Shown: positions 3,034 to 59,633 of the stretch, one piece after another
Position numbering within the stretch: the first letter of the stretch is position 1
Layout of the letters: each line of letters opens with the position of its first letter
DNA from: a plasmid
Sequence record: NZ_CP041047.1
Direction: 5' to 3' (one strand)
Length of the DNA: 64,000 nt
Translations under genes and position numbers: made by a program
The notes under the pieces: model-generated
Told to the model about the DNA's origin: nothing
Databases searched by the model: none
The model's input: only the letters and a program-made list of their open reading frames with translations

Positions 3034-3114
3034 GGAATCTGAGAGCCGGTGCGTAATGCAGAACCCACAGCCGAAGGGTTTTGGGAGTTAAACTGATACA
3101 GCTTTTACCGTGAG

Positions 3115-3525
3115 GTGGGATTTATGTCGAATGTCTTGCAGAAAGAAAACATCATCATGTCTCTGCCTCATCGTGACTGGAGTTGTGAAGTCATCGAGTG
3201 CCGATTAAAAGTGTGCCCCGTACCTGACGAACTCGACAGGGGGAATAACATCTTTTTCATCGTGGAAGACCTTTACCAGCTACGCGAGAACAGTGAATCA
3301 CTTAACGTGCTTGGACAAATTCTGGCGAAACGTTTCCCACACATACCACCAAAAAGAATGCACCTTGTGCTGCACCGACGTGATGTGCAGAAAGCTCATG
3401 GAGTAGCCATCCACCTCTACCGCTTCATGCGTAGCGAGAAAGAAAATAACCGTAGTATTTTCATTGGTCGTAACCCTACTGAAGTTTCCCAGAAGACGGC
3501 ATACGCCTCGATGTGCATTTTCTGA
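3115..3525 (+). CDS. hypothetical protein
   Basis: 136-aa ORF. Confidence 0.3.
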   Translation: MGFMSNVLQKENIIMSLPHRDWSCEVIECRLKVCPVPDELDRGNNIFFIVEDLYQLRENSESLNVLGQILAKRFPHIPPKRMHLVLHRRDVQKAHGVAIHLYRFMRSEKENNRSIFIGRNPTEVSQKTAYASMCIF

Positions 3526-3724
3526 CCACCAGCTGTTGAATCGTCACAATAGCCGACATAGTCGGCTATTTTTTTACGCTAAGAAAAACCATTTATGCCC
3601 ACAAATTGCGGTTGAAAAAGCTATTTATTTTTGGGTGCAAAACGTCCTCATTCTCACTGTAACAATAAATTTCAACATGTGATTATAGTGAGAGTCGAAG
3701 CTGAAACATGAATGGTGGCTACAT

Positions 3725-4609: not shown

Positions 4610-4658
4610 TCGGAATAGTTACCGTTAGAGTGATTTAAAGATCGATTCATTCTGGAAA

Positions 4659-5216
4659 TTGAACGAAGAAAATTTAATGGGAGTAACTATGACTGCACTA
4701 CGCCGTATCTCAACAGAACCAAGCTGGACTCCAGTTGGCATCCGGGGCGAAGGGTTACCGACTAAAGCAGGTGTATACCGTTTTATTGTTCCCCGGGAAG
4801 CCGATAGCTCAGAACATATTGAGTTTCTGGCGTTAGTGCGCTGGCGTAAACACGGTGTTCATCAACTGTTATTTCCCACCTTTGAATACATCGTATGCGA
4901 CGAGAATATCGTGCTCCCAGAAGGCACATGCTGGCGTGAACGCGAACCGTGGGATCCAGATACGCTGGGGGAAACCGAGTTCATCATCGTTCCTGAAATG
5001 AGCGCGGGTGCTCAACGCTGTCCGTTCTGCAAAGAAGTTCCGCGCATCGTTGGTGATAAATACAACTTTGAGTATAAGGAAAACTACATCACGAAAATGC
5101 CTCACCGGTTTAACCGCCTGTGGTTCAGCTGCTGTAAATGGGTTGCTCCTGTGCCCACTTCTGGGATTCAGTCACTGATTACGGCCTGGAACAAAATGCT
5201 CGGGTCATCCCGGTAG
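4659..5216 (+). CDS. hypothetical protein
   Basis: 185-aa ORF with Cys-rich C-terminus (CPFCKE...CCKW). Confidence 0.4.
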   Translation: MNEENLMGVTMTALRRISTEPSWTPVGIRGEGLPTKAGVYRFIVPREADSSEHIEFLALVRWRKHGVHQLLFPTFEYIVCDENIVLPEGTCWREREPWDPDTLGETEFIIVPEMSAGAQRCPFCKEVPRIVGDKYNFEYKENYITKMPHRFNRLWFSCCKWVAPVPTSGIQSLITAWNKMLGSSR

Positions 5217-5221
5217 GAGTA

Positions 5222-5527
5222 ATGATGAAATGTGCGTACCTACGAAAGTTTCTGATCATTGCTTTCATAACCGGCATTAGCGGATGCCAGAGTCTCGGAA
5301 TAGGGTTAAGCCTGGATGAGCGCTACCAGAAGGCTTATCAGAAAGTACTGGCTGACCCTAATGACGATAACATTAAGACTTTCATGAAACTCAGCCAGGA
5401 AAAAGGCGAAAGAGACATGCAAGAGGCAAATTCAAAAGCCGCAGCCGACACTCGTGAAAGCGATAAGGGGTTTACTGAGTATTTTAAATCATATGGCAAC
5501 GATGGATTTAAGCGGGCCAGACAATAA
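5222..5527 (+). CDS. putative lipoprotein
   Basis: start at ATGATG preceded by AGGAG; signal peptide plus lipobox ITGISGC. Confidence 0.4.
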   Translation: MMKCAYLRKFLIIAFITGISGCQSLGIGLSLDERYQKAYQKVLADPNDDNIKTFMKLSQEKGERDMQEANSKAAADTRESDKGFTEYFKSYGNDGFKRARQ

Positions 5528-5539
5528 GAAAGAGGTCAT

Positions 5540-5992
5540 ATGTCATTACAGCAATCGCATGAAAATCTGGAGTTCCTGAAGGGGGCGGTCTGGTGCGCCG
5601 CAAAACTCGTTCAGGAAATTGGCGATTCAAAAGGTGCAGCTATTCTTATCACAAACTTGCCGGTTGGAATTTTCCCTCAATGTAGCGAAAGGGATTTATT
5701 TGTTCTGAGGCAATATGTCAGGAAAGATCTGCCACTTGGTATTGATGCCGAATATAGCGATATCAGGCCGGTCTTAATTGATTATCTGGGAGAGCCAGTA
5801 GACCTTCCTGAGTGTGAACTGGATAATTATGAACCGGCTCCTGGTGAAATGCTCCGCTGGGGAGTAACTGGAGATCTCAGTTCCGGGACACGATGTGTGC
5901 TGGTGGATAATCTTGCTTATCTCGCTGAAGCAATTGGTATCAGCAACGCACTAAGGCAACAGGCCGCAGAGTCAATCCAGCGCACCCTGTGA
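5540..5992 (+). CDS. hypothetical protein
   Basis: 150-aa ORF. Confidence 0.35.
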   Translation: MSLQQSHENLEFLKGAVWCAAKLVQEIGDSKGAAILITNLPVGIFPQCSERDLFVLRQYVRKDLPLGIDAEYSDIRPVLIDYLGEPVDLPECELDNYEPAPGEMLRWGVTGDLSSGTRCVLVDNLAYLAEAIGISNALRQQAAESIQRTL

Positions 5993-6059
5993 TTAGTGAG
6001 TCGCCCCGAATTTCGTAAGCAGCATAAATGCCCTTAATCTTTATCCTACATATTTCAGG

Positions 6060-6605
6060 TTGTTGGGGTTTACCATGTACAAAGACCATTTTCCACAAGC
6101 GTGTCCTTCATCGATAAAAGAGGGCCAGTCATGCTGGCGGGTATTTATTGATATGGACGTAGACAACCCGTCGAAAATAAAAACCAGCGTCGAATTAATA
6201 GAAGTTGGCGTAAAAACAATTCGAATGAAAAAGAATGCGGCAGAAGGCAGTGAAAAAACTGTTTTTCTTGTGGATAAAATCCCTGGAATCACATTTATCA
6301 AAATTCGGCCTAGCGACAAAAAGCCAAGCGTCTGGAATACAAGCATCAGCAGTTTCTATAAACATGACGTGGAAATCGGGAAAACATTCCCCGTTGGTAT
6401 CAGAACGACTAAAAGCGCTGCGTTTCGTACAGCAACAAAAAAAGTTGAACAGAGTATGCAAGAATACACTGATACTATAGCTAAGCTTGAAAACGACTAT
6501 GTTAAGAATGAGACGGAGATTGCTGAGTACAAAAATGAACTCGCTGCTTACCAAACAATACTCCAAACCCTAAAACGTATGGCAAAAAGGCATCTCAAGC
6601 AATAA
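6060..6605 (+). CDS. hypothetical coiled-coil protein
   Basis: 181-aa ORF; C-terminal heptad-like segment. Confidence 0.35.
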   Translation: MLGFTMYKDHFPQACPSSIKEGQSCWRVFIDMDVDNPSKIKTSVELIEVGVKTIRMKKNAAEGSEKTVFLVDKIPGITFIKIRPSDKKPSVWNTSISSFYKHDVEIGKTFPVGIRTTKSAAFRTATKKVEQSMQEYTDTIAKLENDYVKNETEIAEYKNELAAYQTILQTLKRMAKRHLKQ

Positions 6606-6757
6606 TACATTTCGTCTCTTTTCAGGTAAACAAAATGGAAACACAATGTATTTTCATTGCAGGTTTCAAAAATTGTTTCACTCTGGGCCATACATGTTTA
6701 GTATGGGGACATAACAAAGAGAACGCTGGCGAGTACGCTGGCATAAAGATCACCTTT

Positions 6758-6781
6758 CCCGGCCTGGCCGGGATTTTTTTT
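6758..6781 (+). terminator. rho-independent terminator
   Basis: CCCGGCCTGGCCGGG hairpin followed by T9. Confidence 0.6.
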
Positions 6782-6927
6782 GTCTGATGTGCCGTCCTTC
6801 TCACCACAAACTTAATATCCTGACTATTTTTATGGATGTGCAGTGCAATTATTTAACGAATTACCATTCGTCACCAGACCGGACAGGCTGATAATAATGT
6901 CATCCGATACAGAGCTGGGGAGGGTGT

Positions 6928-7485
6928 ATGACTAATCGTGGCTATAGCAAAGTAATTATCGAAGGTACTGTAGGCCGTGAGCCTGAAATCCGACAACACC
7001 CTACCCACGGCATCTACGCAAAGATTTATGTAACAACATCTGAGTCCTCAATGGAGGATAAATCTGGTCTGGAGAAAATTACGGAAGAACACTATCAGAT
7101 CATTTTGCTTGGTCAATTTGCTGATGTGGCCCGCAATCATCTTCATGTCGGGACAGGAGTGTACCTGGAGGCCCAATTGCGTACCCGCCTAATCAAGGAG
7201 GATGGTAAAGAACGCTTCTTTATGGACGTACTTGTCAACCCCGTGAAGGGGCATGTTCTTCGCAAAGTCAATGTAGGCGGTAATAAACTGGTGAGTCGTC
7301 ACCTCCAGCAGAACCGTGGGCAGGATCACCGGCAGAATACCAGTTATAGCCGCAGGCCACAAAACACGAACGCGAGGCCAGCAACACCACGCAACTCGCC
7401 CCCAACAATGGAAAATTATTATTTGGGAAATCAGGATGAAGTTCCAGGAAGCACTGGTGCTTATGGAACTGAGATAGCCTTTTAA
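6928..7485 (+). CDS. ssb: single-stranded DNA-binding protein homolog
   Basis: OB-fold similarity to E. coli SSB (KVIIEGTVGREPE..., EAQLRTR); Gly/Pro/Asn-rich tail. Confidence 0.7.
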   Translation: MTNRGYSKVIIEGTVGREPEIRQHPTHGIYAKIYVTTSESSMEDKSGLEKITEEHYQIILLGQFADVARNHLHVGTGVYLEAQLRTRLIKEDGKERFFMDVLVNPVKGHVLRKVNVGGNKLVSRHLQQNRGQDHRQNTSYSRRPQNTNARPATPRNSPPTMENYYLGNQDEVPGSTGAYGTEIAF

Positions 7486-22519: not shown

Positions 22520-23716
<1,197 letters not shown>

Positions 23717-24353
23717 CTAGCTTAACGAGACGAGTTGAAGATCGCCTTAAATGCGCACTTATCCTCGGCTACCTCAAGCCCGGTGATAAGGTGGTAACAA
23801 AAAACATCGCCGATGCTATGAAAATGAGCGTCACGCCCGTCCGTGAAAGCCTGATACGTTTGTCTGCCAGTAGTGCTCTTGCTTTGACCCCATCACATGC
23901 CTTTTTCGTGCCCGTCATCACCAGTGAGCAGTTCAACGAATACATGAGAATGAGGCGATTGATTGAGCCAGAACTGGCAGAAAAGGCCGTACTGAATATG
24001 GATGACAAGAGCTTTGAAGAATGCCTATCTATGTGCCAAAAGCTGCGTTCAGCATATGATCGAAGGGATGTTTATCTGGCACACCAGCTCAACCTCACTC
24101 TACGGCTGAAGCTTTACATACACGCCGATCTGCCTGAATTTTTCAAAATCGTCACCCAACTTTGGATTAACCTGGGGCCAACTCTGAGTTACACGTTCGA
24201 ATCTGACTCGGAGGAGAAATGGCCAATATTTTTCTCGTCGCTTGAACTCGCACTTTCAAACAGGGATGCAGGGGCAGCAGCAGATGCCATTAGAGAGTCA
24301 CTGGATAAGGGGTTGCGGATCTACCTGAGCCTGTTAACCGAGCAAGGTGAGTA

Positions 24354-24375
24354 AACCGGCTACTAGTAGCCGGTT
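24354..24375. terminator. bidirectional hairpin between convergent gntR-like and parR genes
   Basis: perfect palindrome AACCGGCTACTAGTAGCCGGTT. Confidence 0.5.
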
Positions 24376-24380
24376 CTGAT

Positions 24381-24767
24381 TCAACGTTTGAGGTTTTGCA
24401 TCATCAGGGAGGGTTTAGGAATTTGTTCTTTCTGCTCAGCAGGCTTATCCGAATCAATGGTGGTTGCTGCTCGGATACCTGTGGCCTGGGTTTCCACTGA
24501 TGAAGAATTCCGTTCAACGGCTATGCCCAGCGTTTGCGACAGGATGTTGCTCAGCGTTTCGGCATTAAACGATGTCGTAGTTTGCGCTGCCAGCAAATTA
24601 ATTAACCGAGGGTCGAGCTCATGCAAGGCAGAGGCTATTACCAGTGCCTTACGGTAAAATTCCCCCCGGGAGCGTCGGGGTAAGCGCTCCATAATATCAA
24701 GAGCTTTACCGTCTTCTGGATTATTGCCGGGCCGGAGCCAGACGAGTAAACGTTTATCTTCTTCCAT
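24381..24767 (-). CDS. parR: ParR/StbB-like partition adaptor protein
   Basis: 128 aa from ATG 24767 (GAGGT RBS, 5 nt after parM stop); similarity to R1 ParR N-terminal RHH region. Confidence 0.55.
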   Translation of the reverse strand: MEEDKRLLVWLRPGNNPEDGKALDIMERLPRRSRGEFYRKALVIASALHELDPRLINLLAAQTTTSFNAETLSNILSQTLGIAVERNSSSVETQATGIRAATTIDSDKPAEQKEQIPKPSLMMQNLKR

Positions 24768-24780
24768 CACATGACCTCGT

Positions 24781-25743
24781 TTAGACGCTTGCCATAGCTT
24801 TGACGAGCGCGAGCTGCGCGTCAGGCGCTTTGATGACATCCAGCTTAGGGAATAGCTCGACAATATGAGAATGGATGAGCTCAGCACCGCCACCGGCCAG
24901 GATGATTTTGTGGACGCTATTCTGACGACGGATATCAGCTGCAACAGCTTCGGCCAGATTTTTCGACTCAGAATCGATAACAGCAATGATGGCATCGATT
25001 TTAGAGTGATCATTGACCGCAGAAGCAATCAGATCTCTATCATGACGGTTTTTAATGATGATATCTGCAATGGCATAACTGCTTGGAGACTGGGCATCCT
25101 GGAGCGCTGCCATAACAGCTTTCGTCACTCGTGAAACGCCAACATCGCTGTTGCCAAAGATATCGGATATGCCCTCCATTGCCCCCTGAATGATGGCCAG
25201 GTCTAGGGTTGTCCCCCCCAGATCGACAACCAGGGTTCGTGTAAGCTGCGTGGTTGTTTTAGGGTCAATCAGATATTCAGCCGCAGGTACTGATTCAGGC
25301 ATTACGTTAACTTTTACAACATGAAAAGTTTCGCCGTTATTCAGGCTTATTGGGCCCATGACGTTGGCCTTTTTCTTTTCAATGTTAGCTTCGTTCAACT
25401 GTGCATCGCTCGTGAAGAACATGGCCACCGGTAGAGTCACTGTAAGTTCAACGTCCTGTGGCTCAAGCCCGGACGTCAAAAGAGCATGATGAATTGCTAC
25501 ACGACTAACAGCGTCGAACTGGAAAGAGGTATGGGTTGTTGTAATTGCAGATGTTGAGCCAATGTCGTGGGTAAATTTCCGCCCATCAATAAGATAGTTG
25601 TGGATAGTTTTACCACCAAATGCAAGGGGAGTTGCCCAGCCTTCGCGGAAGGCATTCTGCGAAACATGGGTTTTGATTTCACCATTCTCAACCCAAGCAA
25701 GTTTTACGTTCGTTGAGCCGTCATCACAAGCGATGTTCATCAT
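24781..25743 (-). CDS. parM: ParM/StbA-family actin-like segregation ATPase
   Basis: MMNIACDDGSTNVKLAW actin-fold phosphate-1 motif, DLGGTTLD phosphate-2; start 25743 after GAGGT. Confidence 0.75.
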   Translation of the reverse strand: MMNIACDDGSTNVKLAWVENGEIKTHVSQNAFREGWATPLAFGGKTIHNYLIDGRKFTHDIGSTSAITTTHTSFQFDAVSRVAIHHALLTSGLEPQDVELTVTLPVAMFFTSDAQLNEANIEKKKANVMGPISLNNGETFHVVKVNVMPESVPAAEYLIDPKTTTQLTRTLVVDLGGTTLDLAIIQGAMEGISDIFGNSDVGVSRVTKAVMAALQDAQSPSSYAIADIIIKNRHDRDLIASAVNDHSKIDAIIAVIDSESKNLAEAVAADIRRQNSVHKIILAGGGAELIHSHIVELFPKLDVIKAPDAQLALVKAMASV

Positions 25744-26479
25744 GGTATATACCTCATTAAAATGTTCAAAAGTATCGAAAATCCCAGTCATTTTAGATAG
25801 TAAGCTATCATGAAGCAAGGAATGCGCACCTGTAGCGCACATTTAATGTCCGCGAAATGACTATAAAAAGTGAATTACGAGTGTGTTAAACAGGAACGAT
25901 TCTAGCGGATTGAAATCTGGAGGGTAAACGAGCAAGAGAGATGTAAACGTAATATGCAGAGGTCGGTAGCCCTGGAACATCAACGGTAAAAGTAACAAAC
26001 CACCCGAAAAATGAACCAGAGCCACCAGATTAAATTGTGACGGTGGATGGCCAATACTGCAAGGGCTTACAAGATAAAGGCACATACAATGTAAGTCCAC
26101 ATGATAGCGTGTATTGGAAAGAAGAGTCACCAAACTGATAGATTTGACCCGGGCCAAAACTGTAGTCAGCAAACTTCGTAACTTATTGAACGGATTGTAG
26201 TAGACAAGACAGCTTCTGTGTCGCAATTATCTGAGGCCAATTGGAGCTCATACCAAGCCAAAACCCAGTGCGCACAATGAATGATTAAAACACAAATGCC
26301 TTTAAATTCAAGTACATATAACAAAGATTATGTTAAATAACCTCCATAGGTCTATTACTTCATGGTTCACTCATGCGGTCACAGAAATCAGCATGTTGTG
26401 AATTTTGAGATACCTCCCTTTTCTCACATTAGGTCTGTCGTACATTTACTTCACCGCATGCTGATTGTTGGGTATTTCT

Positions 26480-27853
26480 ATGTACTCACTTACCCAGATT
26501 GTAAGTTCAAACGGCCGAAGGCACTGGATTCTGATGGATGTAAAAATCTGTCTGCCAGCACTTTATCCGCTTAGGTATCTAGTTGACCATCTTGAGTATC
26601 GCTCGCTTTCAACTCAATCAGCTTCTCTCCAGGCGATTAAGTTTTTTTATGAGTTCTGGTACATGAAGCATAGAGCCACATTCTGCTATAGCTTTTACTG
26701 CTCGGGACATGACCCTGCAATCGCTATTCAGGAGATGACAGATTTTTTTCAATACTTAGAAAATGGTCGCATGGTCAGCTTCGCACCACGATTACTGCCA
26801 TTTAAACATTCTAGCGGCATGACAAATGCTTCTAGAGTACGTGCAGTGATTAGATTCATAGGCTACCTGATTGCTACCTATGTATCTCCGTACTATCGAA
26901 ATGAAACGCCCAAAGAATTGTCTCGTCATGCATCCCGTCTCAACACTCGATTGCTGATATGTAAAGACGACTTTAAAACTCTGGAAAGAAGCAATCAGCG
27001 GTATTATTCTCGAGTCACTCAAGGATTTCAGAGCATGACTGGTGATATGGTTGAAAATGTATATCGCATAGTCGTACCGAGTTCAAAACATAAAAATAAC
27101 CTTCTAAACCCCTTCCCTTCAGGATTTATTCAATTTCGCAATTATTTAATTATACGGTTAATGCTCAACTATGGGTTGCGTGTTGGTGAGTTGTTATTGT
27201 TAGAGTGCTCATCGGTTAAAGCTAGTATCAGTGGAGATAAATTTAGCTTAATCATTAGTATGCCTCAAAATATGACCGATCCAAGAACACATGCACCATC
27301 ATTAAAAAATGAGTACTCACATCGAGTTTTGGAACTAGATAAAGCAGATTATGAATTTCTTATTATTTACATGCAGAAAATTAGGAGAAAATCAATAACT
27401 CACAACTTCATATTTGCATCAAGACAAAATCCTGAAAGCCCTTTATCCTATAATGCAGTACATTTGATTTTCTCTGAGATAGATAAGGTTTTTTCACTTA
27501 ACTATCCTGAATGTAAATCAGCAGAGCGCTTTGATGCTCTAATGAAATTTACACCTCATGTTACACGGCATACATGGGCTTACTTAACTATAAAGAAACT
27601 ATATAATTTACAAAATAAAAGATTTAATGGCGCTGGTAATGATTTTGTCAAAAACTCACTTTCAATAGGGGTGATGGATGAGGCAAAAGAGACTCTCCGT
27701 TTGCTGGGCGGTTGGAGTATAAAAAGTCAAATGCCTGAACTTTATGCAAAAAGATTTTTATCTGAGCAAGCCAATGCTGAAAATATCCATCGATTATTAC
27801 AACATGATTCTGAGCTCGATTACTTGATGAAGGAGTTGTTTGATGGATATTAA
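26480..27853 (+). CDS. tyrosine recombinase 1 of tandem trio (RitA/GinA-like)
   Basis: box I GLRVGELLLLE, box II HVTRHTWAYL...LLGGWS...ELYAKRF; overlaps next gene. Confidence 0.8.
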   Translation: MYSLTQIVSSNGRRHWILMDVKICLPALYPLRYLVDHLEYRSLSTQSASLQAIKFFYEFWYMKHRATFCYSFYCSGHDPAIAIQEMTDFFQYLENGRMVSFAPRLLPFKHSSGMTNASRVRAVIRFIGYLIATYVSPYYRNETPKELSRHASRLNTRLLICKDDFKTLERSNQRYYSRVTQGFQSMTGDMVENVYRIVVPSSKHKNNLLNPFPSGFIQFRNYLIIRLMLNYGLRVGELLLLECSSVKASISGDKFSLIISMPQNMTDPRTHAPSLKNEYSHRVLELDKADYEFLIIYMQKIRRKSITHNFIFASRQNPESPLSYNAVHLIFSEIDKVFSLNYPECKSAERFDALMKFTPHVTRHTWAYLTIKKLYNLQNKRFNGAGNDFVKNSLSIGVMDEAKETLRLLGGWSIKSQMPELYAKRFLSEQANAENIHRLLQHDSELDYLMKELFDGY

Positions 27854-29393
27854 ATATAATAAACAGTCTCTATCAGACTCTAGAATGTTTGATCGAAATC
27901 TATCTTCAAAACTAGAATGTTTAGTCATTCCTAAAGATGTTTTTTTGAAATCTAGCAGCGATTTTGATGATAAGCATATTCACAACGGGGAAAATAAATG
28001 GGTTTTTTATTATTCAGGAAGCAAGCGATATGTTTACTTCAAGCTTGATAAGTTAACCAATACTCTATTGAAGTACTTTTGTTTCAAATATGCATCCACG
28101 ATGTTCCCAACTTTCTTACCAGTACTGTCATATCAGTGGACACAAGCATTCAATTACTGTAGTGAAAATGGCGGTTTTAGATTGAACACTTTGCGACAGT
28201 ATATTGAAAACGATGACCTAGATGCCAGGGGCTTCTATTCTATATTATTCGGACTGAAGATCCTTTGCTCTGAAGAGTTTCCTGGATTTACTTTGGAAGA
28301 CTATGAGGATCTTGAGTTTATACCCAGACCAAATGCGTTTAACTGGGATATTTATCAGGATATTGACAATCTCCTCGATCCTTTTGAAAAAAACATGATA
28401 AGTAAAGGATTATTTGAAATGGCAGCGGCGTTGGCTAGGGGAAAATATTATGACATCAGAGAACTCAAACATGCCGCAATACTCGGATTAAGTTATGTTA
28501 CTGGGGCACGTCCTGTGCAGTTGGCAAAATTAGCTGTTAAAGACTTGCGTCTTGATACCTGTGATAATAGCACCGGACTATTTCGATACAGTATTCTGCT
28601 ACCTTACGTCAAACAACGACGCCTTACGACCGACCGTTTACTGCTGGCTATTCCACCGGAAATTGGTGCGATAATTAAGCAATATGTGGAGCGAACCCAG
28701 TTATTACCTGATGATAAAATGTTCGACATGGGAGTGTCCGCCCCTGCTTTTGCCTCTAAGTCTATAAGCCAAGCAATTCTAAACTTCAGCCCACCTGATT
28801 ATCAAACTGCCGTTGCTTGCGGCGAGGCAGCCCTACCAACAATCACATCAACCGATTTACGCCACAACGTTGGTCACTCACTAGCTATGCAAGGAGCCAG
28901 TGCGGAGGAGATTGCTCACATTCTTGGCCATTCATCTCTAGTTGTAGCAAAGCACTACATCCTGGCGACACCAGCCTTGGCATTGATCCGCGCTAAAGCT
29001 CTTGGTTCTAACCCCGTCTGGCAAAACATGGTGGCTATGATGTTGACTGGGAAATTGGTCACTTCAAAAGAATGGCAAGGTCGACGTGTGGTTGGAATTG
29101 TTGGGGACCGGCTGCACTACGAGATCGGCGGTTGTTCTAGAGCCGATGACGAATGCCCTTTCTGTGAAGTCCGTTGCTGTTATGGTTGCTTATATTACCG
29201 CCCTTTCCTCGATGGTCATCACCAGGACGTATTAGAAAGCGTCTCTAAAGAAGTCGATGAGCTAATAGCTGTTTCTGATTGCGTCGGGAATGCTCACAAT
29301 CCACTAATTTCTATCCACGAAACAACGCAGATCGAAGTCAAGTCAGTAATAGCCCGTTGTCATTTGCATCACGTCAAAGGTTGTGAACAATGA
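27840..29393 (+). CDS. tyrosine recombinase 2 of tandem trio (RitB/GinB-like)
   Basis: GARPVQLAKL (box I R), LRHNVGHSLA...ILGHSSLVVAKHY (box II H-x-x-R...Y); Cys-rich tail CPFCEVRCCYGC; overlaps flanking genes. Confidence 0.8.
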   Translation: MMDIKYNKQSLSDSRMFDRNLSSKLECLVIPKDVFLKSSSDFDDKHIHNGENKWVFYYSGSKRYVYFKLDKLTNTLLKYFCFKYASTMFPTFLPVLSYQWTQAFNYCSENGGFRLNTLRQYIENDDLDARGFYSILFGLKILCSEEFPGFTLEDYEDLEFIPRPNAFNWDIYQDIDNLLDPFEKNMISKGLFEMAAALARGKYYDIRELKHAAILGLSYVTGARPVQLAKLAVKDLRLDTCDNSTGLFRYSILLPYVKQRRLTTDRLLLAIPPEIGAIIKQYVERTQLLPDDKMFDMGVSAPAFASKSISQAILNFSPPDYQTAVACGEAALPTITSTDLRHNVGHSLAMQGASAEEIAHILGHSSLVVAKHYILATPALALIRAKALGSNPVWQNMVAMMLTGKLVTSKEWQGRRVVGIVGDRLHYEIGGCSRADDECPFCEVRCCYGCLYYRPFLDGHHQDVLESVSKEVDELIAVSDCVGNAHNPLISIHETTQIEVKSVIARCHLHHVKGCEQ

Positions 29394-31753
29394 AAAAAAA
29401 TATTGAGAACTTTGACACTTTTATTACGGAACAAAAAGCCTGGTTCGGTGAGAATCTGGCAGCAGATTTTGCAGAGTCATGGGATAGCCGTACATGGGTG
29501 TGTGGGCGCAAAGGCTCCGGCTGGTTACGTGGCAATGGTGATAGTGTATTGCGTTTCGATGAAATTAATCGGCTCAAAGGGATCGACGAGCACCATACTT
29601 TATCCGAGCCTTATCAGCTGTTCATGAAAGCCATGTTGGTACTCGTCTACCGAGCTAGAAATCGCAGTATTTCCCCTGCGGTTGCTGTTGCAACGCTGGT
29701 TATTTTGAAACGCTGGTACTGCGCTCTCTTCAAGTTAACCGGGCAAACGCATCCCATCTATCTGACTACAGATGTCGTACGTAGCGCAATGGATACTCTG
29801 AGTGCTGCATCCCGGCCAGGTGATCCCAACGTTGCCAATTACAAGGGGCGTTGCGTTAAGATTCAAAAATTAGTAAACCATCACGCCTTCACATTAGTAA
29901 CACTGCAATATGTATCCGATGATCGTTATACCAATCAGACTAATTTGACCCGAAAAGCCCGGGAAACAATCGCTCTAAAACAAAAAGACAAGCTGGATGA
30001 TACGGCCACTGATGGTGAAGATGCTCTGATTACAATTAGAGGGTTCCTCAATATAGTGTCATTAATCCAGCGAGTCGAAAGCAGCACTGAAAAGATTGCT
30101 CTCAATTGCCTTCTGTTACTGATCGTCACCGGATTTCGTTCTGTCGAAGCATTCAATCTCAGGCAGGATGCGTTAGTCAAACGACAAATAGATAGCCAAA
30201 ATATTAGTAGGCACCTGAAAGATAAGGGGTTACCGGATTATTTTCTTGGCATCCGTTATATTGGTGTTAAGGGAGCAGGTGAACGAACACATTGGGTCGA
30301 GCCCTTAGCGGTCCCTTTGGTTGAGAGCATATTCAGCTCGGTTAAGTCGCTAACAGTTGAGTTACGAAAGCATCTCGCAAATTTACGCTCAAAAGAATTT
30401 GCTGATTATTTACCTGAGGCAATCTGTGAATTTGAGGGTGAACTCGTTGAACTCGATGATATTGTAGAACACATAGCCCAGTCCTCATCAGAGCTTCGTG
30501 GTCGTGCAGGATTACGTGATAAAGTGTCGAAAGCGTTATCAAAACGAGGCTGTATCCCGACTCAAGTCATTCTTGGAACACGTAATCAGAAAGGAAAATA
30601 TTACTCAAAATCAGACCTTAGCCTTTTTCTTAAAAATGAATTTGGTGATAACAGCGAAAATACTCCCTGTACTCACGCATGGATAGAAAATGGCAAAAGA
30701 TATGAGGTTATGTATGAGGATTTATTGTTCCTTTTCCCTAAAGGATCTCTGACTTTAAAAAGAGGGTTGGAGCTGAAAACAACACCACAGCCACTTAGTA
30801 ATGCTGGACTAAACAAATTTCTCGGTAACGTTGACGGTCATTCTTCGGTCTTCAGTAAATATAGGCTGCTCGAAGATGATGGCCGCCCCACCCAGCTCCG
30901 TACTCATATTCCTCGTCACAATATAAACACTTTTCTCGCTATTGCTGAGATTTCAGACCACTTACAAGCGATGCTGATGGGGCGTGTTGATATCACTCAA
31001 AATCAGCATTATCAGCACCTGGCTCTCAAGGAACGGCGAAAAGCAGCTTCTCTAACCCCTTTAGTTCCAACCGTACCGGAGCAGTCAGCATCTAGTGCTG
31101 TTGACGTTGATTCACCTCTCGATGCGGTAAAGAAAAGTGGTTTAATGACGTTTAATCGCGTCCAGAGCCTGGAAATAAATATAAAGGCAAACCTACATAC
31201 CTTCGATGACCGTAACGATGTTGCAGGCTTCATTGAAGCGTCCTTAGGTGATGGATTATTCGAAGACATTGCCGCTGCGTTTGAAGAAATCAGTAAAAAC
31301 GAAGGGCCATCGCAAGCATCTGAAATGGTGCAAAGGCACGCTGTACTGCATCCATTGAAATTGGGTTCTTGCATGAGAGACGTTAACTTGTGGGGATGCC
31401 CTTATCGAATGAAGTGTCAGGCATTGAAGCCCTGTGAGCATTTCACGTTGACCGGGCGTGTTGATGAATACTCCGCTGTTGTATTCAAAGGTAGGGCATT
31501 AAACGAGGCCAAACTTGCTTTTGAACAGTATACCGCAGCCCTTTCTGACAACCAGCTAGTGCAAGGCAATATTGACGATAGTCTTGCACAGCTAGATGCA
31601 CTAAGTGAGCAATTACGCAGACGCTCAAACTCGTTGGAAGCAATTACCTCACAGGCACTTCTGTCAGGAGAAATAAAGGTGGAAGGTGAAATTCGTACAC
31701 TGGCTCAATTATTTGCTATCGAGTACCAAAAAATCAAACAAGGAGAAGACTGA
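29390..31753 (+). CDS. tyrosine recombinase 3 of tandem trio (RitC/GinC-like), long form
   Basis: TGFRSVEAFNL (box I), IPRHNINTFLA...MLMGRVDITQNQHYQH (box II); 787 aa. Confidence 0.8.
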   Translation: MKKNIENFDTFITEQKAWFGENLAADFAESWDSRTWVCGRKGSGWLRGNGDSVLRFDEINRLKGIDEHHTLSEPYQLFMKAMLVLVYRARNRSISPAVAVATLVILKRWYCALFKLTGQTHPIYLTTDVVRSAMDTLSAASRPGDPNVANYKGRCVKIQKLVNHHAFTLVTLQYVSDDRYTNQTNLTRKARETIALKQKDKLDDTATDGEDALITIRGFLNIVSLIQRVESSTEKIALNCLLLLIVTGFRSVEAFNLRQDALVKRQIDSQNISRHLKDKGLPDYFLGIRYIGVKGAGERTHWVEPLAVPLVESIFSSVKSLTVELRKHLANLRSKEFADYLPEAICEFEGELVELDDIVEHIAQSSSELRGRAGLRDKVSKALSKRGCIPTQVILGTRNQKGKYYSKSDLSLFLKNEFGDNSENTPCTHAWIENGKRYEVMYEDLLFLFPKGSLTLKRGLELKTTPQPLSNAGLNKFLGNVDGHSSVFSKYRLLEDDGRPTQLRTHIPRHNINTFLAIAEISDHLQAMLMGRVDITQNQHYQHLALKERRKAASLTPLVPTVPEQSASSAVDVDSPLDAVKKSGLMTFNRVQSLEINIKANLHTFDDRNDVAGFIEASLGDGLFEDIAAAFEEISKNEGPSQASEMVQRHAVLHPLKLGSCMRDVNLWGCPYRMKCQALKPCEHFTLTGRVDEYSAVVFKGRALNEAKLAFEQYTAALSDNQLVQGNIDDSLAQLDALSEQLRRRSNSLEAITSQALLSGEIKVEGEIRTLAQLFAIEYQKIKQGED

Positions 31754-31890
31754 TGCGTGGTAAAGAACTGGATACTCAGATCGAGCATGAGCTCCAACTG
31801 ATGCTGATTGAAGGGTTTGATAAATCGCCTATTTCGGCTAAAAGCTTGCATGCCAGACTTAAATCAAATGCATCATCAATGGCGGCTTAA
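31753..31890 (+). CDS. small ORF translationally coupled (TGATG) to third recombinase; GinD-like position
   Basis: 45-aa ORF read directly; below the size cut-off of the ORF track. Confidence 0.3.
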   Translation: MRGKELDTQIEHELQLMLIEGFDKSPISAKSLHARLKSNASSMAA

Positions 31891-31988
31891 GTACATTAAG
31901 TAACATTGAACGAAAACGTCTTATTGCAGCCTATGTCGATCAACAATTATCCCCTCTAAATCTTCGTCCCAAAGAAAAGCAGCAGTAT

Positions 31989-32234
31989 GTGAATCGTAAG
32001 ACGCGCCAGGCTTTACTTGGTCGTAATCAGCAGTTGCAGGAGGAAAATAAAGAGCTACGTGAACAACTTGCACAAAACACCCTGTCATTGATTGAAATTG
32101 TCAAAGCAGTAAAAATCAATACTGTGATACCAGTCGAAAGCCTGCTGGCGCCTCACGTTCTTAGGGAGTTGATAAAAAAAATTGATTTCACGTGGTCAGT
32201 GCCACGTATGGCTATGGTGTGTCTTATTGCTTAA
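31989..32234 (+). CDS. small coiled-coil protein
   Basis: 81 aa, N-terminal heptad-rich QQLQEENKELREQLAQN. Confidence 0.35.
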   Translation: MNRKTRQALLGRNQQLQEENKELREQLAQNTLSLIEIVKAVKINTVIPVESLLAPHVLRELIKKIDFTWSVPRMAMVCLIA

Positions 32235-32426
32235 AAATTTTCGTATACGAAAACATGAAGCCGAGAATTATAGTGGGCACTAACCCTCGACTCCCCCGAT
32301 CTTTCATGATCTTTCTTCAGCCAAATCAGGAGCAGCTTTGCATCACAGCTAAATCAGAAAATGTGTGTAATAATTCCTTCCAATTCAATGCAGATACAAC
32401 ATTTTTGGTTTATGAGGGAACGATAA

Positions 32427-34154
32427 ATGGCTGTTATCCGCCACATCAGCATCCAAAACTTTCGGGCAGTGCGACAAGCAGAATGGTGCCCTGGCCCAAG
32501 CCTCAATTGTCTGATAGGCCCAGGGGATTCAGGAAAATCGACCATCATTGACGCGATTGACCTGGTGCTTGGCGCAAGAAGATCGTTTACGTTCAGTGAT
32601 GCAGATTTTCATTTGATGAACACAGCCACGCCAATCTGCATCAGCATAACGCTAGGACAGCTCGATGACGGATTGCTGAATCTCGAAGCTTACGGACGCT
32701 ATTTTCGTGGGTTCAACATTGAAACGAAAGAAATCCATGATGAACCGCTGGCGGGTGATGAGACTGTGCTCACGCTAAGAATGGTCGTCGAAGATGATCT
32801 TGAACCAGACTGGCTCTTATTTTCTGAACGAACAACTGCGGAAGGTCTGGAGAAAAGACTGCAATGGAAGCACCGTGAGCAATTAAGCCCGACGCGCCTT
32901 GGGGCTGCATCCCACCACCACCTGGCATGGGGAAATCGCTCAGTATTAAACAAACTTTCAGATGAGGATTTCAATGTCAGCGCAACGCTGGCCGAGCTTT
33001 CCCGTCAAACCCGGCAAAGCTTTGCTGCCCGGGAACTTCCGCAGCTTGATGCCATTCTGACCGAAGTCAGAACTATCGCGAATTCACTTGGGGTACCGGT
33101 CGGTGAACTGAAAGCGCTTCTGGATGTTAATGGCGTTTCACTCTCTAACAGCGCAATCAGTCTGCATAACAATGATAATACGCCGCTGAGGATGCTTGGC
33201 ACGGGATCGACCCGTTTACTGGTAAGCGGGTTACAGAAAGCTGTCGGGCGTCCAGGGACCATACTTATTGATGAAGCGGAATATGGGCTGGAGCCCTACA
33301 GAATAAGCCAGCTGTTGCATCAACTGGGCTCCCGCGATCCTGAGCCCACTTCGCAGGTATTCATCACCACTCATTCCCCATATGTTCTCCGGGAACTCCA
33401 AGCAACCCAACTATGTGTGCTGCGAAAAGTAAATCAACCGGCCCCAGAGCCTTCACACCTTTTCCTGACACTTAGCGGAGAAGATCAGGAACAGGCAACC
33501 TTACGGGCCTGCGCTGAAGCCTTCTTTAGCAAAGCCGTGATTGTGGGTGAAGGTGGGACTGAGGTTGGTTTTATCAGAGGACTGGATTTATACAGGCAAA
33601 GCAGAGGAAGAACGGGTTTTCAGGATCAAGGTGCCTTTGCTACCGATGGCGCCGGTGGGGAAAAATATTTCAAACGCGCCGAGGTTTTTGCACGACTGGG
33701 GTATCGTACTGCATTACTAAAAGACTCAGATATTATCTCGCAAGCACACAGACTAAAGACAGAACATTGCCGGGCCAGGGGCGTGACCATTTTTGAATGG
33801 GGTAATGGTTTTTCAACAGAGGGAGCCCTGCTAGCCTGGTGCCCTGTTGAGACTATCCGTGACATTGTTCTCCTCGCTGCGGCTCTGAACAGCCAACAAC
33901 AGGTGGATCAGCATATTCAGAACTGCTCCCAGGGAGCTTATAACTTTGAAGCATGCACTGAGGAACCAACGATAGAAATGAGAGAGCCCGTGGCGCGTGC
34001 GGCAGGTGAATATGGTTGGTTTAAAACGATCGGCAAGGCTGAAGACCTGGCGGAAAATATTGTGGGCCCGGCTATCAATGATTTTTCACGGCCGTTCAAG
34101 GCGATAATCAGAGATTTGCTGGGGTGGGCTGCAGATGACGGTGATCAACAATGA
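32427..34154 (+). CDS. gajA: Gabija GajA: OLD-family ABC ATPase-TOPRIM endonuclease
   Basis: Walker A GPGDSGKST, ILIDEAEYGLEP, TOPRIM VIVGEGGTEVGF; 575 aa; GAGGG RBS. Confidence 0.8.
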   Translation: MAVIRHISIQNFRAVRQAEWCPGPSLNCLIGPGDSGKSTIIDAIDLVLGARRSFTFSDADFHLMNTATPICISITLGQLDDGLLNLEAYGRYFRGFNIETKEIHDEPLAGDETVLTLRMVVEDDLEPDWLLFSERTTAEGLEKRLQWKHREQLSPTRLGAASHHHLAWGNRSVLNKLSDEDFNVSATLAELSRQTRQSFAARELPQLDAILTEVRTIANSLGVPVGELKALLDVNGVSLSNSAISLHNNDNTPLRMLGTGSTRLLVSGLQKAVGRPGTILIDEAEYGLEPYRISQLLHQLGSRDPEPTSQVFITTHSPYVLRELQATQLCVLRKVNQPAPEPSHLFLTLSGEDQEQATLRACAEAFFSKAVIVGEGGTEVGFIRGLDLYRQSRGRTGFQDQGAFATDGAGGEKYFKRAEVFARLGYRTALLKDSDIISQAHRLKTEHCRARGVTIFEWGNGFSTEGALLAWCPVETIRDIVLLAAALNSQQQVDQHIQNCSQGAYNFEACTEEPTIEMREPVARAAGEYGWFKTIGKAEDLAENIVGPAINDFSRPFKAIIRDLLGWAADDGDQQ

Positions 34155-35566
34155 GTGTGGATGCCGTTTTAAATGCCACTAAAGGCCTGATTGTAGCGCC
34201 TGCCGGATGCGGCAAAACCCACCTGATTACTGACGCTCTGAGTGTTGCACAAAGTAAGCCGTATCTCGTGCTGACGCATACAACTGCAGGTGTAACGGCA
34301 CTCAAAAAGCGATTGAGTCGTTTTGCAATTCCTCCGCGAAACTATATTGTGACAACAATCGATGGATGGGCGCTGAAGATAGCAGGCTGTTTCCCGGGAT
34401 TGTGCCCGCTTGACGTTGGTCCTGAAAATCCAACCCTTTTCTACCCTTCTCTTCGCCGTGCCGTACTGAACTTGATTGTTAACGGTAATATTAGCGAAAT
34501 CATCACAGCTACTTACTCGCGTTTGCTGGTCGATGAATACCAGGACTGCAATAGTGAACAGCATGAACTGACTTGTGCGCTTTCACGTTTGCTACCAACG
34601 GTCGTCTTTGGTGACCCGATGCAATGTATCTTCAGCTTCAGCGGCCCTATGCCTGACTGGACCCGAACCGTTGAGACTTTTTTCCCTACTCTGGCAACCT
34701 TGCAGACGCCCTGGCGCTGGAACAATGCCCAAACCCCAGATTTGGGCCAATGGATCCTTGAGCAAAGACATCGTTTACTTCGCCGGGAGCGCATTGACTT
34801 AAAGTCTTGTCCTGAATATGTCCGTTTTCATCCTCTTTCACGAAATCACAATGACAATATCCAGCGCCAGCAGCGCGAATATTACTCGCTGCTGCGACAT
34901 TTCCCCAACGACTCGATTTTGGTTATGGGTGATTCACGAAGAGCTTCATCCCGGCATCAATTTGCACAACGTATTAATGGTATTGATGTTGTTGAACCCG
35001 TTGATCTGACTGATGTGATGAGAATGGCCACTTCCCTTGACGAGGCTAATACCGCTAACGTGATGCCAAATATATTACAGGCAGCAGCTGAGCTGATGAC
35101 AAATGTGGGCGTTAGCGCAACCCTACGCAGAATTGGTTCTATTCAAGCCGGTCGAAACATAACGCCCCCTTCTTCACTTGAAATTGCATTAGTAGAGCTT
35201 GCACTGGCACCCACCCGACAAAACATGCGAACAACGCTTCTCTTGCTTGAAGAGAAGTATGAAACTCGCGTATTCAGGGCCGGAGCGCTGCAAGTGCTAA
35301 AAGATGCAATAAATCTGTCCATCAGTTCACCCGAAAAAAGCATTCATGAATCAGCATCTGTCATTCGTGAACAACGCAGATACCAGGGAGAAGGACGTGT
35401 ATCGCATCGCTCAATAGGCTCAACACTTCTTCTGAAAGGACTGGAATGCGATCACGCATTAATACTGGATGCAGGAAATATGGGAGCAAGTGATTTGTAT
35501 GTTGCACTCTCCAGGGGGGCTAAATCTGTTACGGTCTTCTCAGTCCGTGATGAATTCACACCCTGA
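34151..35566 (+). CDS. gajB: Gabija GajB: UvrD/Rep-like SF1 helicase
   Basis: APAGCGKT Walker A, VDEYQD motif, LYVALSRGAKSV motif VI; 4-nt overlap with gajA. Confidence 0.8.
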   Translation: MSVDAVLNATKGLIVAPAGCGKTHLITDALSVAQSKPYLVLTHTTAGVTALKKRLSRFAIPPRNYIVTTIDGWALKIAGCFPGLCPLDVGPENPTLFYPSLRRAVLNLIVNGNISEIITATYSRLLVDEYQDCNSEQHELTCALSRLLPTVVFGDPMQCIFSFSGPMPDWTRTVETFFPTLATLQTPWRWNNAQTPDLGQWILEQRHRLLRRERIDLKSCPEYVRFHPLSRNHNDNIQRQQREYYSLLRHFPNDSILVMGDSRRASSRHQFAQRINGIDVVEPVDLTDVMRMATSLDEANTANVMPNILQAAAELMTNVGVSATLRRIGSIQAGRNITPPSSLEIALVELALAPTRQNMRTTLLLLEEKYETRVFRAGALQVLKDAINLSISSPEKSIHESASVIREQRRYQGEGRVSHRSIGSTLLLKGLECDHALILDAGNMGASDLYVALSRGAKSVTVFSVRDEFTP

Positions 35567-43380: not shown

Positions 43381-43424
43381 CAGAAAATAGCCTACAGTAC
43401 CGACAAAGGTCAGTGTTCTGTAGG
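43381..43424 (-). terminator. riboswitch expression-platform terminator
   Basis: CCUACAG...CUGUAGG stem sharing the aptamer 3' CCUAC, followed by CUAUUUUCUG. Confidence 0.65.
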
Positions 43425-43473
43425 CGTCATTAACTGTCAGAAAACAGTGGTTATAAGGAGGAACGCCATCTCC
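43420..43473 (-). promoter_or_regulatory. fluoride riboswitch (crcB motif) aptamer
   Basis: RNA GGAGAUGGCGUUCCUCC-UUAUAAC-CACUGU...ACAGU-UAAUGACGCCUAC matches consensus GGnGAUGGnGUUCnCC...UAAUGAnnCCUAC; pseudoknot GGCGU/ACGCC; TATAGT -10 about 7 nt upstream. Confidence 0.85.
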
Positions 43474-43694
43474 GCCGGGCACTATACCTGTTCTGCCCAA
43501 CGTTGACCATGATTTTTCCTGCTTCGCCTGCGGAATTAGCCTCCCCTCATTCGCAAAACCGTAACGGATCGCCGGAAAATGGAGTGTTCCGCAGATTGTC
43601 TGCCAGTGAAATATTATTCAGGATAGACAGACCAAGATACAGGAAATGAAGATGACAGTTTTTAAATATTGCCACTGCCATCTCCCACCCATCA

Positions 43695-44273: not shown

Positions 44274-44497
44274 AAATGTTAATTACCCAGAAAAAAGAAG
44301 CATAATACTGCCTGATTCTTAATATTCACTTAAGAAAAATCCATGATGGCTGGCAGATCCCCCCAGATTCTCACCGTTCATTCTCGCTGAAGCCCTGGAG
44401 GGATAGGATGACACCGCGCGTAAGGAATAACCTACACAACAGAGAACAATAATTGATATTGATTTATTGCAACGGTCCATATAAGATTGATCAACAA

Positions 44498-44565
44498 GGT
44501 GATGGTGCTCCACCTTACCCAACCGCCGGTTTCTTTAAAAACCGGATGATGACGCCTGATATACA
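44498..44565 (+). promoter_or_regulatory. fluoride riboswitch (crcB motif) aptamer
   Basis: GGUGAUGGUGCUCCACC-UUACCCAAC-CGCCGG(loop)CCGG-AUGAUGACGCCUGAU; P1 GGUG/CACC; 3' CCUGAUAUACA can pair with UGUAUGUCAGG spanning the start codon. Confidence 0.7.
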
Positions 44566-48343: not shown

Positions 48344-48718
48344 ATGTACAAATCATTATTCGCGGTAGTGATAGGCGGCTCGATCGGCTGTGTGATCCGC
48401 TGGATACTGTCCATGCGTCTCAATGCACTTTTCCCCAATCTTCCACCTGGCACCCTGGTGGTTAATCTGGTTGGCGGATTTATCATCGGTATGGCACTGG
48501 CCTTCTTTGTCCGGCAGCCTCACCTCGATCCCGCCTGGAAGTTTTTTATTACCACCGGCTTATGCGGCGGTATGACCACCTTTTCCACTTTTTCAGCTGA
48601 GGTGGTAGTTCTACTTCAGAATGGCAATTATGCATGGGCTGTCATTTCCGTACTGACGCACGTAACTGGCTCGCTTTTGATGACTGCAGCCGGTTTTTTT
48701 GTAATGACACTGTTGTAA
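48344..48718 (+). CDS. crcB: fluoride channel CrcB/Fluc
   Basis: 124 aa, GGFIIG...CGGMTTFSTF motifs. Confidence 0.9.
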   Translation: MYKSLFAVVIGGSIGCVIRWILSMRLNALFPNLPPGTLVVNLVGGFIIGMALAFFVRQPHLDPAWKFFITTGLCGGMTTFSTFSAEVVVLLQNGNYAWAVISVLTHVTGSLLMTAAGFFVMTLL

Positions 48719-53071: not shown

Positions 53072-53891
53072 GGCACTGTTGCAAATAGTCGGTGGTGATA
53101 AACTTATCATCCCCTTTTGCTGATGGAGCTGCACATGAACCCATTCAAAGGCCGGCATTTTCAGCGTGACATCATTCTGTGGGCCGTACGCTGGTACTGC
53201 AAATACGGCATCAGTTACCGTGAGCTGCAGGAGATGCTGGCTGAACGCGGAGTGAATGTCGATCACTCCACGATTTACCGCTGGGTTCAGCGTTATGCGC
53301 CTGAAATGGAAAAACGGCTGCGCTGGTACTGGCGTAACCCTTCCGATCTTTGCCCGTGGCACATGGATGAAACCTACGTGAAGGTCAATGGCCGCTGGGC
53401 GTATCTGTACCGGGCCGTCGACAGCCGGGGCCGCACTGTCGATTTTTATCTCTCCTCCCGTCGTAACAGCAAAGCTGCATACCGGTTTCTGGGTAAAATC
53501 CTCAACAACGTGAAGAAGTGGCAGATCCCGCGATTCATCAACACGGATAAAGCGCCCGCCTATGGTCGCGCGCTTGCTCTGCTCAAACGCGAAGGCCGGT
53601 GCCCGTCTGACGTTGAACACCGACAGATTAAGTACCGGAACAACGTGATTGAATGCGATCATGGCAAACTGAAACGGATAATCGGCGCCACGCTGGGATT
53701 TAAATCCATGAAGACGGCTTACGGCACCATCAAAGGTATTGAGGTGATGCGTGCACTACGCAAAGGCCAGGCCTCAGCATTTTATTATGGTGATCCCCTG
53801 GGCGAAATGCGCCTGGTAAGCAGAGTTTTTGAAATGTAAGGCCTTTGAATAAGACAAAAGGCTGCCTCATCGCTAACTTTGCAACAGTGCC
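53072..53891 (+). mobile_element. IS26 (copy 1), 820 bp
   Basis: 14-bp IRs GGCACTGTTGCAAA / TTTGCAACAGTGCC; no flanking 8-bp duplication. Confidence 0.95.
53135..53839 (+). CDS. tnpA: IS26 transposase Tnp26 (variant with Gly at position 196)
   Basis: MNPFKGRHFQRDIILWAVRW...; differs from copy 2 at KTAYGTIKG vs KTAYATIKG. Confidence 0.95.
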   Translation: MNPFKGRHFQRDIILWAVRWYCKYGISYRELQEMLAERGVNVDHSTIYRWVQRYAPEMEKRLRWYWRNPSDLCPWHMDETYVKVNGRWAYLYRAVDSRGRTVDFYLSSRRNSKAAYRFLGKILNNVKKWQIPRFINTDKAPAYGRALALLKREGRCPSDVEHRQIKYRNNVIECDHGKLKRIIGATLGFKSMKTAYGTIKGIEVMRALRKGQASAFYYGDPLGEMRLVSRVFEM

Positions 53892-56260: not shown

Positions 56261-56360
56261 CCTTTTTTTTAACAGTGGCAGGGACTGCTAAAAATGAATG
56301 ATGGTAGGCGGGATTTCTCAATAAGGAACTAACATGGCTGACTGGTTTATTGCGACTGAG

Positions 56361-59618: not shown

Positions 59619-59633
59619 GTTGGAGTTATTACC

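Follow-up and report, generated by a model that had tools for sequence, protein, structure and literature searches.

The trio of recombinase genes beside a dif-like Xer site of a plasmid as the probable recombination module of a GInt-type island

The 64,000-nt stretch of plasmid DNA considered here (record NZ_CP041047.1; "the window" means this whole stretch) contains three consecutive genes for tyrosine-recombinase-like proteins, located to the left of a Gabija defence pair and of fluoride-resistance genes. To what kind of element do these three genes belong, where does this element begin and end, and how did it enter the plasmid? We conclude that the trio is probably the recombination module of a GInt-type island, i.e. 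a four-gene operon at the left end of an element that would insert at a Xer site by means of its own recombinases. The reference GInt for all comparisons is that of Escherichia coli Sakai, ECs_3512 to ECs_3509, in which ECs_3512, ECs_3511 and ECs_3510 are GinA, GinB and GinC, respectively. The genes of the window operon are the following.

26480-27853, + strand: ginA-like tyrosine recombinase (ORF1; 457 aa; Pfam PF00589, 37 bits; 26% identity to Sakai GinA)
27840-29393, + strand: ginB-like tyrosine recombinase (ORF2; 517 aa; Pfam, 29.9 bits; NCBIfam NF041502, 86 bits; 25% identity to Sakai GinB)
29390-31753, + strand: ginC-like large recombinase-fold protein (ORF3; 787 aa; invariant R250, K294, H506-x-x-R509-H510, R532 and Y541)
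31753-32234, + strand: ginD-like fourth gene, a pseudogene in the window (1-nt deletion between 31865 and 31866)

According to the list of open reading frames (ORFs) of the window, the three large ones are consecutive on the same strand and overlap at their ends, as stated in the original prediction. ORF1 and ORF2 share 14 nt, ORF2 and ORF3 are joined by ATGA, and a 45-aa ORF is joined to ORF3 by TGATG. The frame of ORF1 opens at 26465 and its annotated start is at 26534. A start at the ATG at 26480 is likely, because the first 20 residues counted from it, MYSLTQIVSSNGRRHWILMD, are conserved at the protein level in alleles that share only 50-55% identity. The matches of ORF1 and ORF2 to Pfam Phage_integrase exceed the cut-off, and that of ORF3 is weak (13.4 bits); the NF041502 match of ORF2 covers residues 334-507. 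A PDB sequence search with ORF1, ORF2 and ORF3 gave no match for any of them. ORF1 presents the box I Arg (YGLRVGE), H-V-T-R-H, GW replacing His-II, and the Tyr in ELYAKRF. ORF2 keeps R224, K258, R341, H364 and Y373, with Thr at the His-I position; the H-x-x-R motif that had been attributed to each of the three proteins is present in ORF1 and ORF3, but ORF2 has T-D-L-R. ORF3 has numerous full-length homologues, every one annotated as hypothetical. Sakai GinC and 32 homologues all share with it R250 (TGFRSxE), K294, H506-x-x-R509-H510, R532 (at the His-II position) and Y541. The predicted structure model of ORF3 has a tyrosine-recombinase fold. Published papers disagree on whether GinC retains catalytic residues. 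In the present lineage the ginC-like protein may have a catalytic role, since all motif positions, assigned by motif, are conserved. The Cys clusters noticed earlier in the second and third recombinases are both present. The 32 homologues all keep C661, C670, C676 and C682 of ORF3, and Sakai GinC has no aligned counterpart there. In ORF2 the cluster lies in a Cys-rich C-terminal insertion, CPFCEVRCCYGC, which is absent from Sakai GinB and has one Cys replaced by Ser in plasmid p99COLEC.

Each of the three large proteins pairs with one GInt protein. By BLASTP, the partner of ORF1 is Sakai GinA (E 3e-13), GinB and GinC giving nothing significant; ORF2 matches GinB (E 6e-10), and ORF3 matches GinC in two collinear segments (E 4e-11 and 8e-8). 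All cross-pairs have E > 0.1, so the pairing is one-to-one. Gene order and sizes are likewise those of the ginABCD operon: recombinase, recombinase, large degenerate recombinase-fold protein, small protein. Under the operational rule of Hochhauser 2023, which asks for one integrase at E < 1e-5 and the same organisation, the window trio counts as a GInt. Idola et al. 2023 (PMC10214605) list the Sakai ginC-ginD pair itself as a GInt, in their Additional file 10. Recombination driven by ginABCD has been shown experimentally in Pseudomonas GInts, where all four genes are essential and the element is excised as a circle.

The 45-aa ORF (31753-31890), which begins on the stop codon of ORF3, had been predicted as a coupled gene. 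The ORF and its TGATG coupling are real, but we read it as a pseudogene fragment, the N-terminal third of a frameshifted gene of about 147-160 aa. Alignment with the intact 147-aa gene of p99COLEC reveals one missing A (AAAA to AAA) between 31865 and 31866, and the rest of the gene runs on in the frame of an 81-aa ORF (31989-32234). All plasmids that are 100% identical over this region have the same frameshift. Intact fourth genes of 144-160 aa are found in related elements, including those of loci L004 (Citrobacter amalonaticus Y19 plasmid), L005 and L013 (E. coli H7). The fourth-protein family is compact and well conserved, with 104 clusters at 50% identity among 1.84 billion representatives. 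Its predicted model is all-helical, with a long coiled coil and a 40-residue helix, and Foldseek found no match to this model in the PDB under E = 1.

The left boundary of the element and its surroundings comprise three features.

26311-26338, + strand: plasmid dif-like Xer site forming attL; the element starts directly after it
26328-26338, + strand: left copy of an 11-nt imperfect direct repeat, TTATGTTAAAT, from the attB/attL/attR comparison of Klebsiella plasmids
26339-26479, + strand: non-coding left end of the element, with a CTTCATGG motif at 26358-26365 and a 17-nt inverted repeat

We take dif, where bacteria resolve dimers of their chromosomes or plasmids, to be divided into a XerC arm, a 6-bp centre and a XerD arm. 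Divided in this way, the targets in three plasmid backbones are as follows.

Window: XerC-arm-like AGTACATATAA, centre CAAAGA, XerD arm TTATGTTAAAT
Klebsiella plasmid: XerC-arm-like AGTACGCATAA, centre TGTACG, XerD arm TTATGTTAAAT
p99COLEC: XerC-arm-like AGTGCGTATAA, centre CTAGGA, XerD arm TTATGTTAAAT

The 28-mer pattern adjoins the first recombinase gene in L001, L002 (p99COLEC), L004, L005, L008 and L013. In the E. coli H7 chromosome (L013) the element starts right after GGTGCGCATAATGTATATTATGTTAAAT, downstream of hipA, and a second, decayed trio element follows in tandem (23961-27464 of this locus), directly after ...AACATAAGTTAAAT. In E. coli MLI110 the element is again located just downstream of hipA. 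GGTGCGCATAATGTATATTATGTTAAAT is the experimentally confirmed dif of E. coli (PMC3025954). Hochhauser et al. 2023 number the hipA-ydeT interval as hotspot 20. A scan with one genome per species yielded 60 loci encoding ORF3 relatives, 46 of them evaluable, i.e. with enough upstream DNA. In 27 of the 46, the element starts directly after a 28-mer that departs from ATAA-N6-TTATGTTAAAT at one position at most. The loci are from Gammaproteobacteria (Enterobacterales, Acinetobacter, Psychrobacter, Moraxella, Aeromonas, Vibrio and Kangiella). Mostly the 28-mer begins about 3.0-3.3 kb 5' of the start of the ginC-like gene, a few times as far as 4.4 kb from it, and it is followed by DNA similar to left ends already known. 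Each host group has its typical XerC arm (for example ATTTCGTATAA in Acinetobacter and AGTGCGCATTA in Vibrio), and three further loci have partial or contig-edge versions. The family is present in 273 of 5426 complete E. coli genomes, at 323 places of which 307 are chromosomal; the listed positions cluster near half the genome length. As far as its sequence can tell, the target is a Xer site: canonical dif in chromosomes, those of two E. coli strains among them, and dif-like sites in the three plasmid backbones.

Comparison with an empty site, as had been suggested for mapping the ends, succeeded in plasmids of a Klebsiella backbone, for which attB and both junctions were obtained. The window from 28342 to 53071 is about 95% identical to plasmid NZ_CP058867.1 of Klebsiella pneumoniae STLEFF_42, which has a different backbone and in which all four operon genes are intact and followed by the same cargo. 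Island-free plasmids of this Klebsiella backbone represent the empty site. The junctions read as follows, a slash marking the boundary.

attB, Klebsiella plasmids: ...GTACGTTATGTTAAAT / ACGCTAAGG (ACGC...)
attL, Klebsiella plasmids: ...GTACGTTATGTTAAAT (ending TTATGTTAAAT) / TTAGTCC
attR, Klebsiella plasmids: ...CTTAACATAAGTTAAAT (ending AACATAAGTTAAAT) / ACGCTAAGG

At attL the 28-mer is preserved in full; at attR the element supplies the first 4 nt of the XerD arm. TTATGTTAAAT and ATAAGTTAAAT, the 11-nt repeats on either flank, are identical at 9 of 11 positions and have GTTAAAT in common. This heptamer, the last 7 nt of the left repeat (26332-26338), is the identity segment holding the crossover. 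Exact TTATGTTAAAT occurs once within the window, at 26328-26338. Repeats at 26377-26417 and 32341-32381 had been proposed as the ends of the element. A gapped similarity does exist between them, but 21% of random window pairs score equally; the real left boundary is at 26328-26338, and the right one has been lost to IS26 at 53072. Conserved GTTCATGAA-type motifs lie some 31 nt in from the left end and some 100 nt in from the right one; the subterminal CTTCATGG of the window (26358-26365) is of the GTTCATGAA type in relatives. The element ends bear an inverted 9-mer (TTATGTTAA and TTAACATAA), and the 17-nt inverted repeat (26386-26402 / 26450-26466) lies just 5' of the first gene. It is possible that the motifs and repeats of the ends are accessory binding sites or an operator, both assignments being putative.

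How could such an element move? In active relatives the element would circularise, and its own recombinases would exchange strands between the element site (...CTYAACATAA/GTTAAAT/...) and the final 7 nt in the XerD arm of the Xer site. This would leave the 28-bp Xer site intact at the left junction and an 11-nt imperfect direct repeat around the island. XerCD cleave at the borders of the central region. The crossover is placed in the outer 7 nt of the XerD arm, because the full 28-mer is found at attL and four element bases are found at attR. This position, outside the dif central region, points to an exchange by the element's own recombinases rather than by XerCD. The element is without transfer genes and would probably spread by riding conjugative plasmids with dif-like sites, which fits with the occurrence of the same island in two plasmid backbones and of close relatives in chromosomes.

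Several points weigh against the assignment to a GInt-type module that works at Xer sites by itself. About 16 of the 46 evaluable loci, mostly those of more distant relatives, have no dif. There is only one complete set of empty site, attL and attR, and a PLSDB search found no empty site for the window's own backbone; the related backbone of Citrobacter freundii p705SK3_1 (L003) is too diverged at the insertion spot to serve as one. XerC/XerD may have a helper role by binding at the adjacent site. Finally, a direct profile-profile comparison between the fourth-protein family and Sakai-type GinD was negative (probability 0.25%). Homology of the fourth protein to GinD is plausible through a transitive link: an intermediate group from a profile search has 99.2% probability to the window fourth-protein family, and 71% (E 3.7e-5) to Sakai-type GinD over the C-terminal 58 aa, the coiled-coil part. 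A member of this group adjoins a GInt-order trio of 367, 482 and 688 aa in a metagenome contig (L010). In this distant relative (2332-7365 of the contig) the small fourth gene is inverted, being convergent with the 688-aa gene and overlapping it.

Of the other explanations, the one that survives best, although we consider it unlikely, is that of a classical IMEX (an integrative mobile element that exploits Xer), in which host XerC/XerD would move the island at dif and the trio would be irrelevant or merely regulatory. It would agree with a target that is dif or a dif-like site, with the degenerate XerD arm ATAAGTTAAAT at the right junction and with the tandem arrays at dif. Known IMEXs (CTX-phi, TLC-phi, VGJ-phi, the gonococcal genetic island, EludIMEX/EcloIMEX) are likewise located at dif, with a functional dif plus a degenerate second site, and accumulate in tandem; the Enterobacter islands EludIMEX and EcloIMEX, inserted at a dif site, have been described as Xer-dependent. 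However, a Xer exchange would leave the resident XerD arm intact at attR, and the crossover is seen inside GTTAAAT. IMEXs have no recombinase of their own and are exchanged by XerCD at the dif central region, whereas here the junction is in the outer 7 nt of the XerD arm and the element bears a conserved four-gene recombination operon, homologous to the GInt operon found essential by experiment. Moreover, the left-end DNA varies between elements with different ginA alleles.

We regard it as very improbable that the trio has a role in plasmid maintenance, as a resolvase-like system acting on the dif-like site next to parM, with no mobile island involved. The trio does directly adjoin a dif-like site and a ParM partition locus, and each of the 10 plasmids of the backbone variant has the dif-like left flank, the island or what remains of it. 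The family is, however, mostly chromosomal in E. coli, the same cargo is found in different backbones with an empty site, and the trio is absent from plasmids of the same backbone type.

Recombinase-in-trio (RIT) elements are compact, end in long terminal inverted repeats and carry neither a fourth gene nor a large cargo. The original prediction had compared the architecture of the locus to both RIT and GInt, and only the latter stands. Least credible of all is an assignment to a RIT element or to a strand-biased circularizing integrative element (SE), a gamma-mobile-trio (GMT) element or a Tn554-type element: three adjacent recombinase-like genes, overlapping as in RitA/B/C, are common ground and ORF1 has a weak NCBIfam GmtY match (20.7 bits), but the trio is without terminal inverted repeats (the longest flanking inverted pair, of 14-16 nt, is unremarkable) and moves with a fourth gene and more than 20 kb of cargo, the GmtY cut-off is 340 bits with no GmtZ or GmtX match in NCBIfam, GMT elements have two recombinases and a small protein, and the largest, degenerate protein is third here and second in SEs. 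SEs (Idola et al. 2023, PMC10214605) do resemble the present element in having four core genes, namely two for RHRY recombinases, one for a recombinase-fold protein and one for a small helical protein, in residing in Gammaproteobacteria and in lacking transfer genes. They differ in their order intA-tfp-intB-srap, where the fold protein (without RHRY) comes second, in their ends, which are 13-19-bp imperfect inverted repeats with a 6-bp footprint, and in that SE and GInt proteins fall into separate clusters.

Like GInts (2017, PMC5385486; Tn6571 family), the element has a left-end four-gene operon in the same order, with the three large proteins homologous one to one. Its cargo starts where the fourth gene ends and includes defence systems, Gabija among them; its right end is AT-rich, its insertion is site-specific, and the repeat at its flanks is imperfect and 11 nt long. 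For GInts, such direct repeats are defined as 10-17 nt long, and the window retains the left copy only. The right ends of L007, L006 and L013 are AT-rich by eye, i.e. without a computed A+T fraction. Similarity to p99COLEC is lost about 40 nt short of the stop codon that closes the fourth gene of that plasmid, and the DNA is variable from there. E. coli GInts with defence cargo including Gabija have already been reported (PMC10121019). On the other hand, identity to the Sakai GInt proteins is only 25-28%, the ginC-like protein is longer (787 aa) with its invariant R..K..HxxR..Y set and four-Cys cluster, the fourth-protein family has no direct match to Sakai-type GinD, and the reported GInt targets are an ABC-transporter gene, ssb and a ribonucleotide reductase gene, whereas here the target is a Xer site. 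Judged by structure and homology, the locus conforms to what defines a GInt, a direct GinD match excepted. A literature search, with subscription literature outside its scope, found no paper joining a dif site to GInt, Tn6571 or three integrases.

The operon of the window has a composite history. Its left 2 kb (ginA and half of ginB) is an allele that differs from those of the Klebsiella and Y19 elements and resembles that of p99COLEC. We read the operon as a mosaic with a recombination breakpoint in ORF2, because the left 2 kb and the remainder match different alleles. To the left of the breakpoint (28342) the identity to p99COLEC is 88% and the DNA cannot be aligned by blastn to the Klebsiella/Y19 allele; to the right, the identity to the Klebsiella allele is 94.6%. 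GinA alleles differ by 40-50%, yet the core site is identical. Two other copies have been inactivated differently: the ginC-like gene is split by ISKpn25 and a type I restriction-modification system in the Y19 plasmid (25119-34106 of L004), and by an IS3-family element in p99COLEC (15238-16466 of L002). In p705SK3_1 (28136-29593 of L003) there is an IS1-interrupted gene annotated as the gamma-mobile-trio recombinase GmtY; because of this gene, we conclude that a different trio-type element also visits the plasmid family of the window.

What does the island carry, and how much of it is left? The features to the right of the operon are listed here.

32235-53071, no strand assigned: island cargo (annotation of an identical plasmid; PADLOC; Rfam; same cargo in a different backbone)
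32427-34154: gajA (PADLOC GajA, 716 bits)
34151-35566: gajB (PADLOC GajB, 567 bits)
43414-43482, - strand: fluoride riboswitch (Rfam RF01734)
44489-44565, + strand: fluoride riboswitch (Rfam RF01734)
48344-48718: crcB, in the fluoride-resistance cluster (CLC-type channel gene, eno, gpmA, crcB)
53072-53891, + strand: IS26 copy that truncates the island with its left inverted repeat, GGCACTGTTGCAAA (53891 set from the transposase ORF, 53117-53839)

The whole downstream cargo (Gabija, fluoride cluster and MutS-like pair) is assigned to the element because of the empty site and both junctions in the Klebsiella plasmids, and the expectation that Gabija and the fluoride genes might be cargo of the trio agrees with their joint presence in a different plasmid backbone. 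The Gabija pair is complete (32427-35566), and PADLOC gave no match for the three hypothetical genes downstream of it. The two riboswitches (48 and 43 bits) point outwards, one preceding the CLC-type channel/DUF190 genes and the other the DHHA2-usp-eno-gpmA-crcB genes; the cluster looks like a regulated fluoride-resistance unit, because outward riboswitches head both gene sets. Further cargo consists of a gene for a P-type ATPase and of two paired MutS-like genes, of which the second is truncated. Cargo varies by element: Gabija and fluoride genes in the window, an ABC-three-component system with an AAA ATPase in the first element of E. coli H7 (L013), and CBASS-like genes in L014, for a nucleotidyltransferase, an E1-like protein, a JAB-like protein and an HNH protein. 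In a Pantoea vagans plasmid (PMC5971314), crcB, eno, gpmA, ppaC and uspA lie beside two "phage integrase" genes, inserted in umuC; this region is possibly a further fluoride island carried by recombinases.

The window ceases to match any of the intact relatives at 53071, where the IS26 end starts. NZ_CP058867.1 and NZ_CP056574.1, a full relative of the window plasmid, lose their similarity to each other at one common point on the right, the real right end. The right-end motif was searched for across the window and none was found, i.e. attR is absent, having been lost to the IS26 truncation at 53072. The island would be roughly 30 kb long, of which the window holds the left end. The copy in the window is, to judge by its frameshifted fourth gene and by the removal of its right end by IS26, a fossil that is no longer mobile. 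The DNA after 53072 (also at about 56360-57180 and 58864-59633) contains IS26 and IS1 copies and high-GC segments, a typical IS26-bounded mosaic common to thousands of plasmids. On the other side of the operon, an ISKpn26 copy (22668-23648) lies upstream of a gene for a GntR-family regulator, and the partition genes (a ParM-like gene and its partner) are located between ISKpn26 and the dif-like site.

For the window plasmid, these data mean that Gabija and the fluoride genes came in together, on a single island that is now fixed there. More broadly, we propose tentatively that there is a widespread GInt lineage in which three recombinase-fold proteins insert the element at the outer edge of the XerD arm, in dif and in plasmid dif-like sites, sparing dif and without XerCD, so that dif, the universal site of dimer resolution, would be a safe harbour from which cargo for defence and resistance could shuttle between chromosomes and conjugative plasmids. 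If this were true, a site present once in almost every chromosome, with similar sites on many large plasmids, would be a landing pad in nearly any host and on plasmids that pass from host to host. This would explain the spread of islands that have no transfer genes and carry, among other cargo, Gabija, CBASS-like or fluoride-resistance genes, as well as the E. coli defence hotspot beside hipA. The Enterobacterales dif islands labelled "Xer-dependent" might belong to, or depend on, a GInt-type system, and islands assumed to be Xer-dependent would then deserve a second look.

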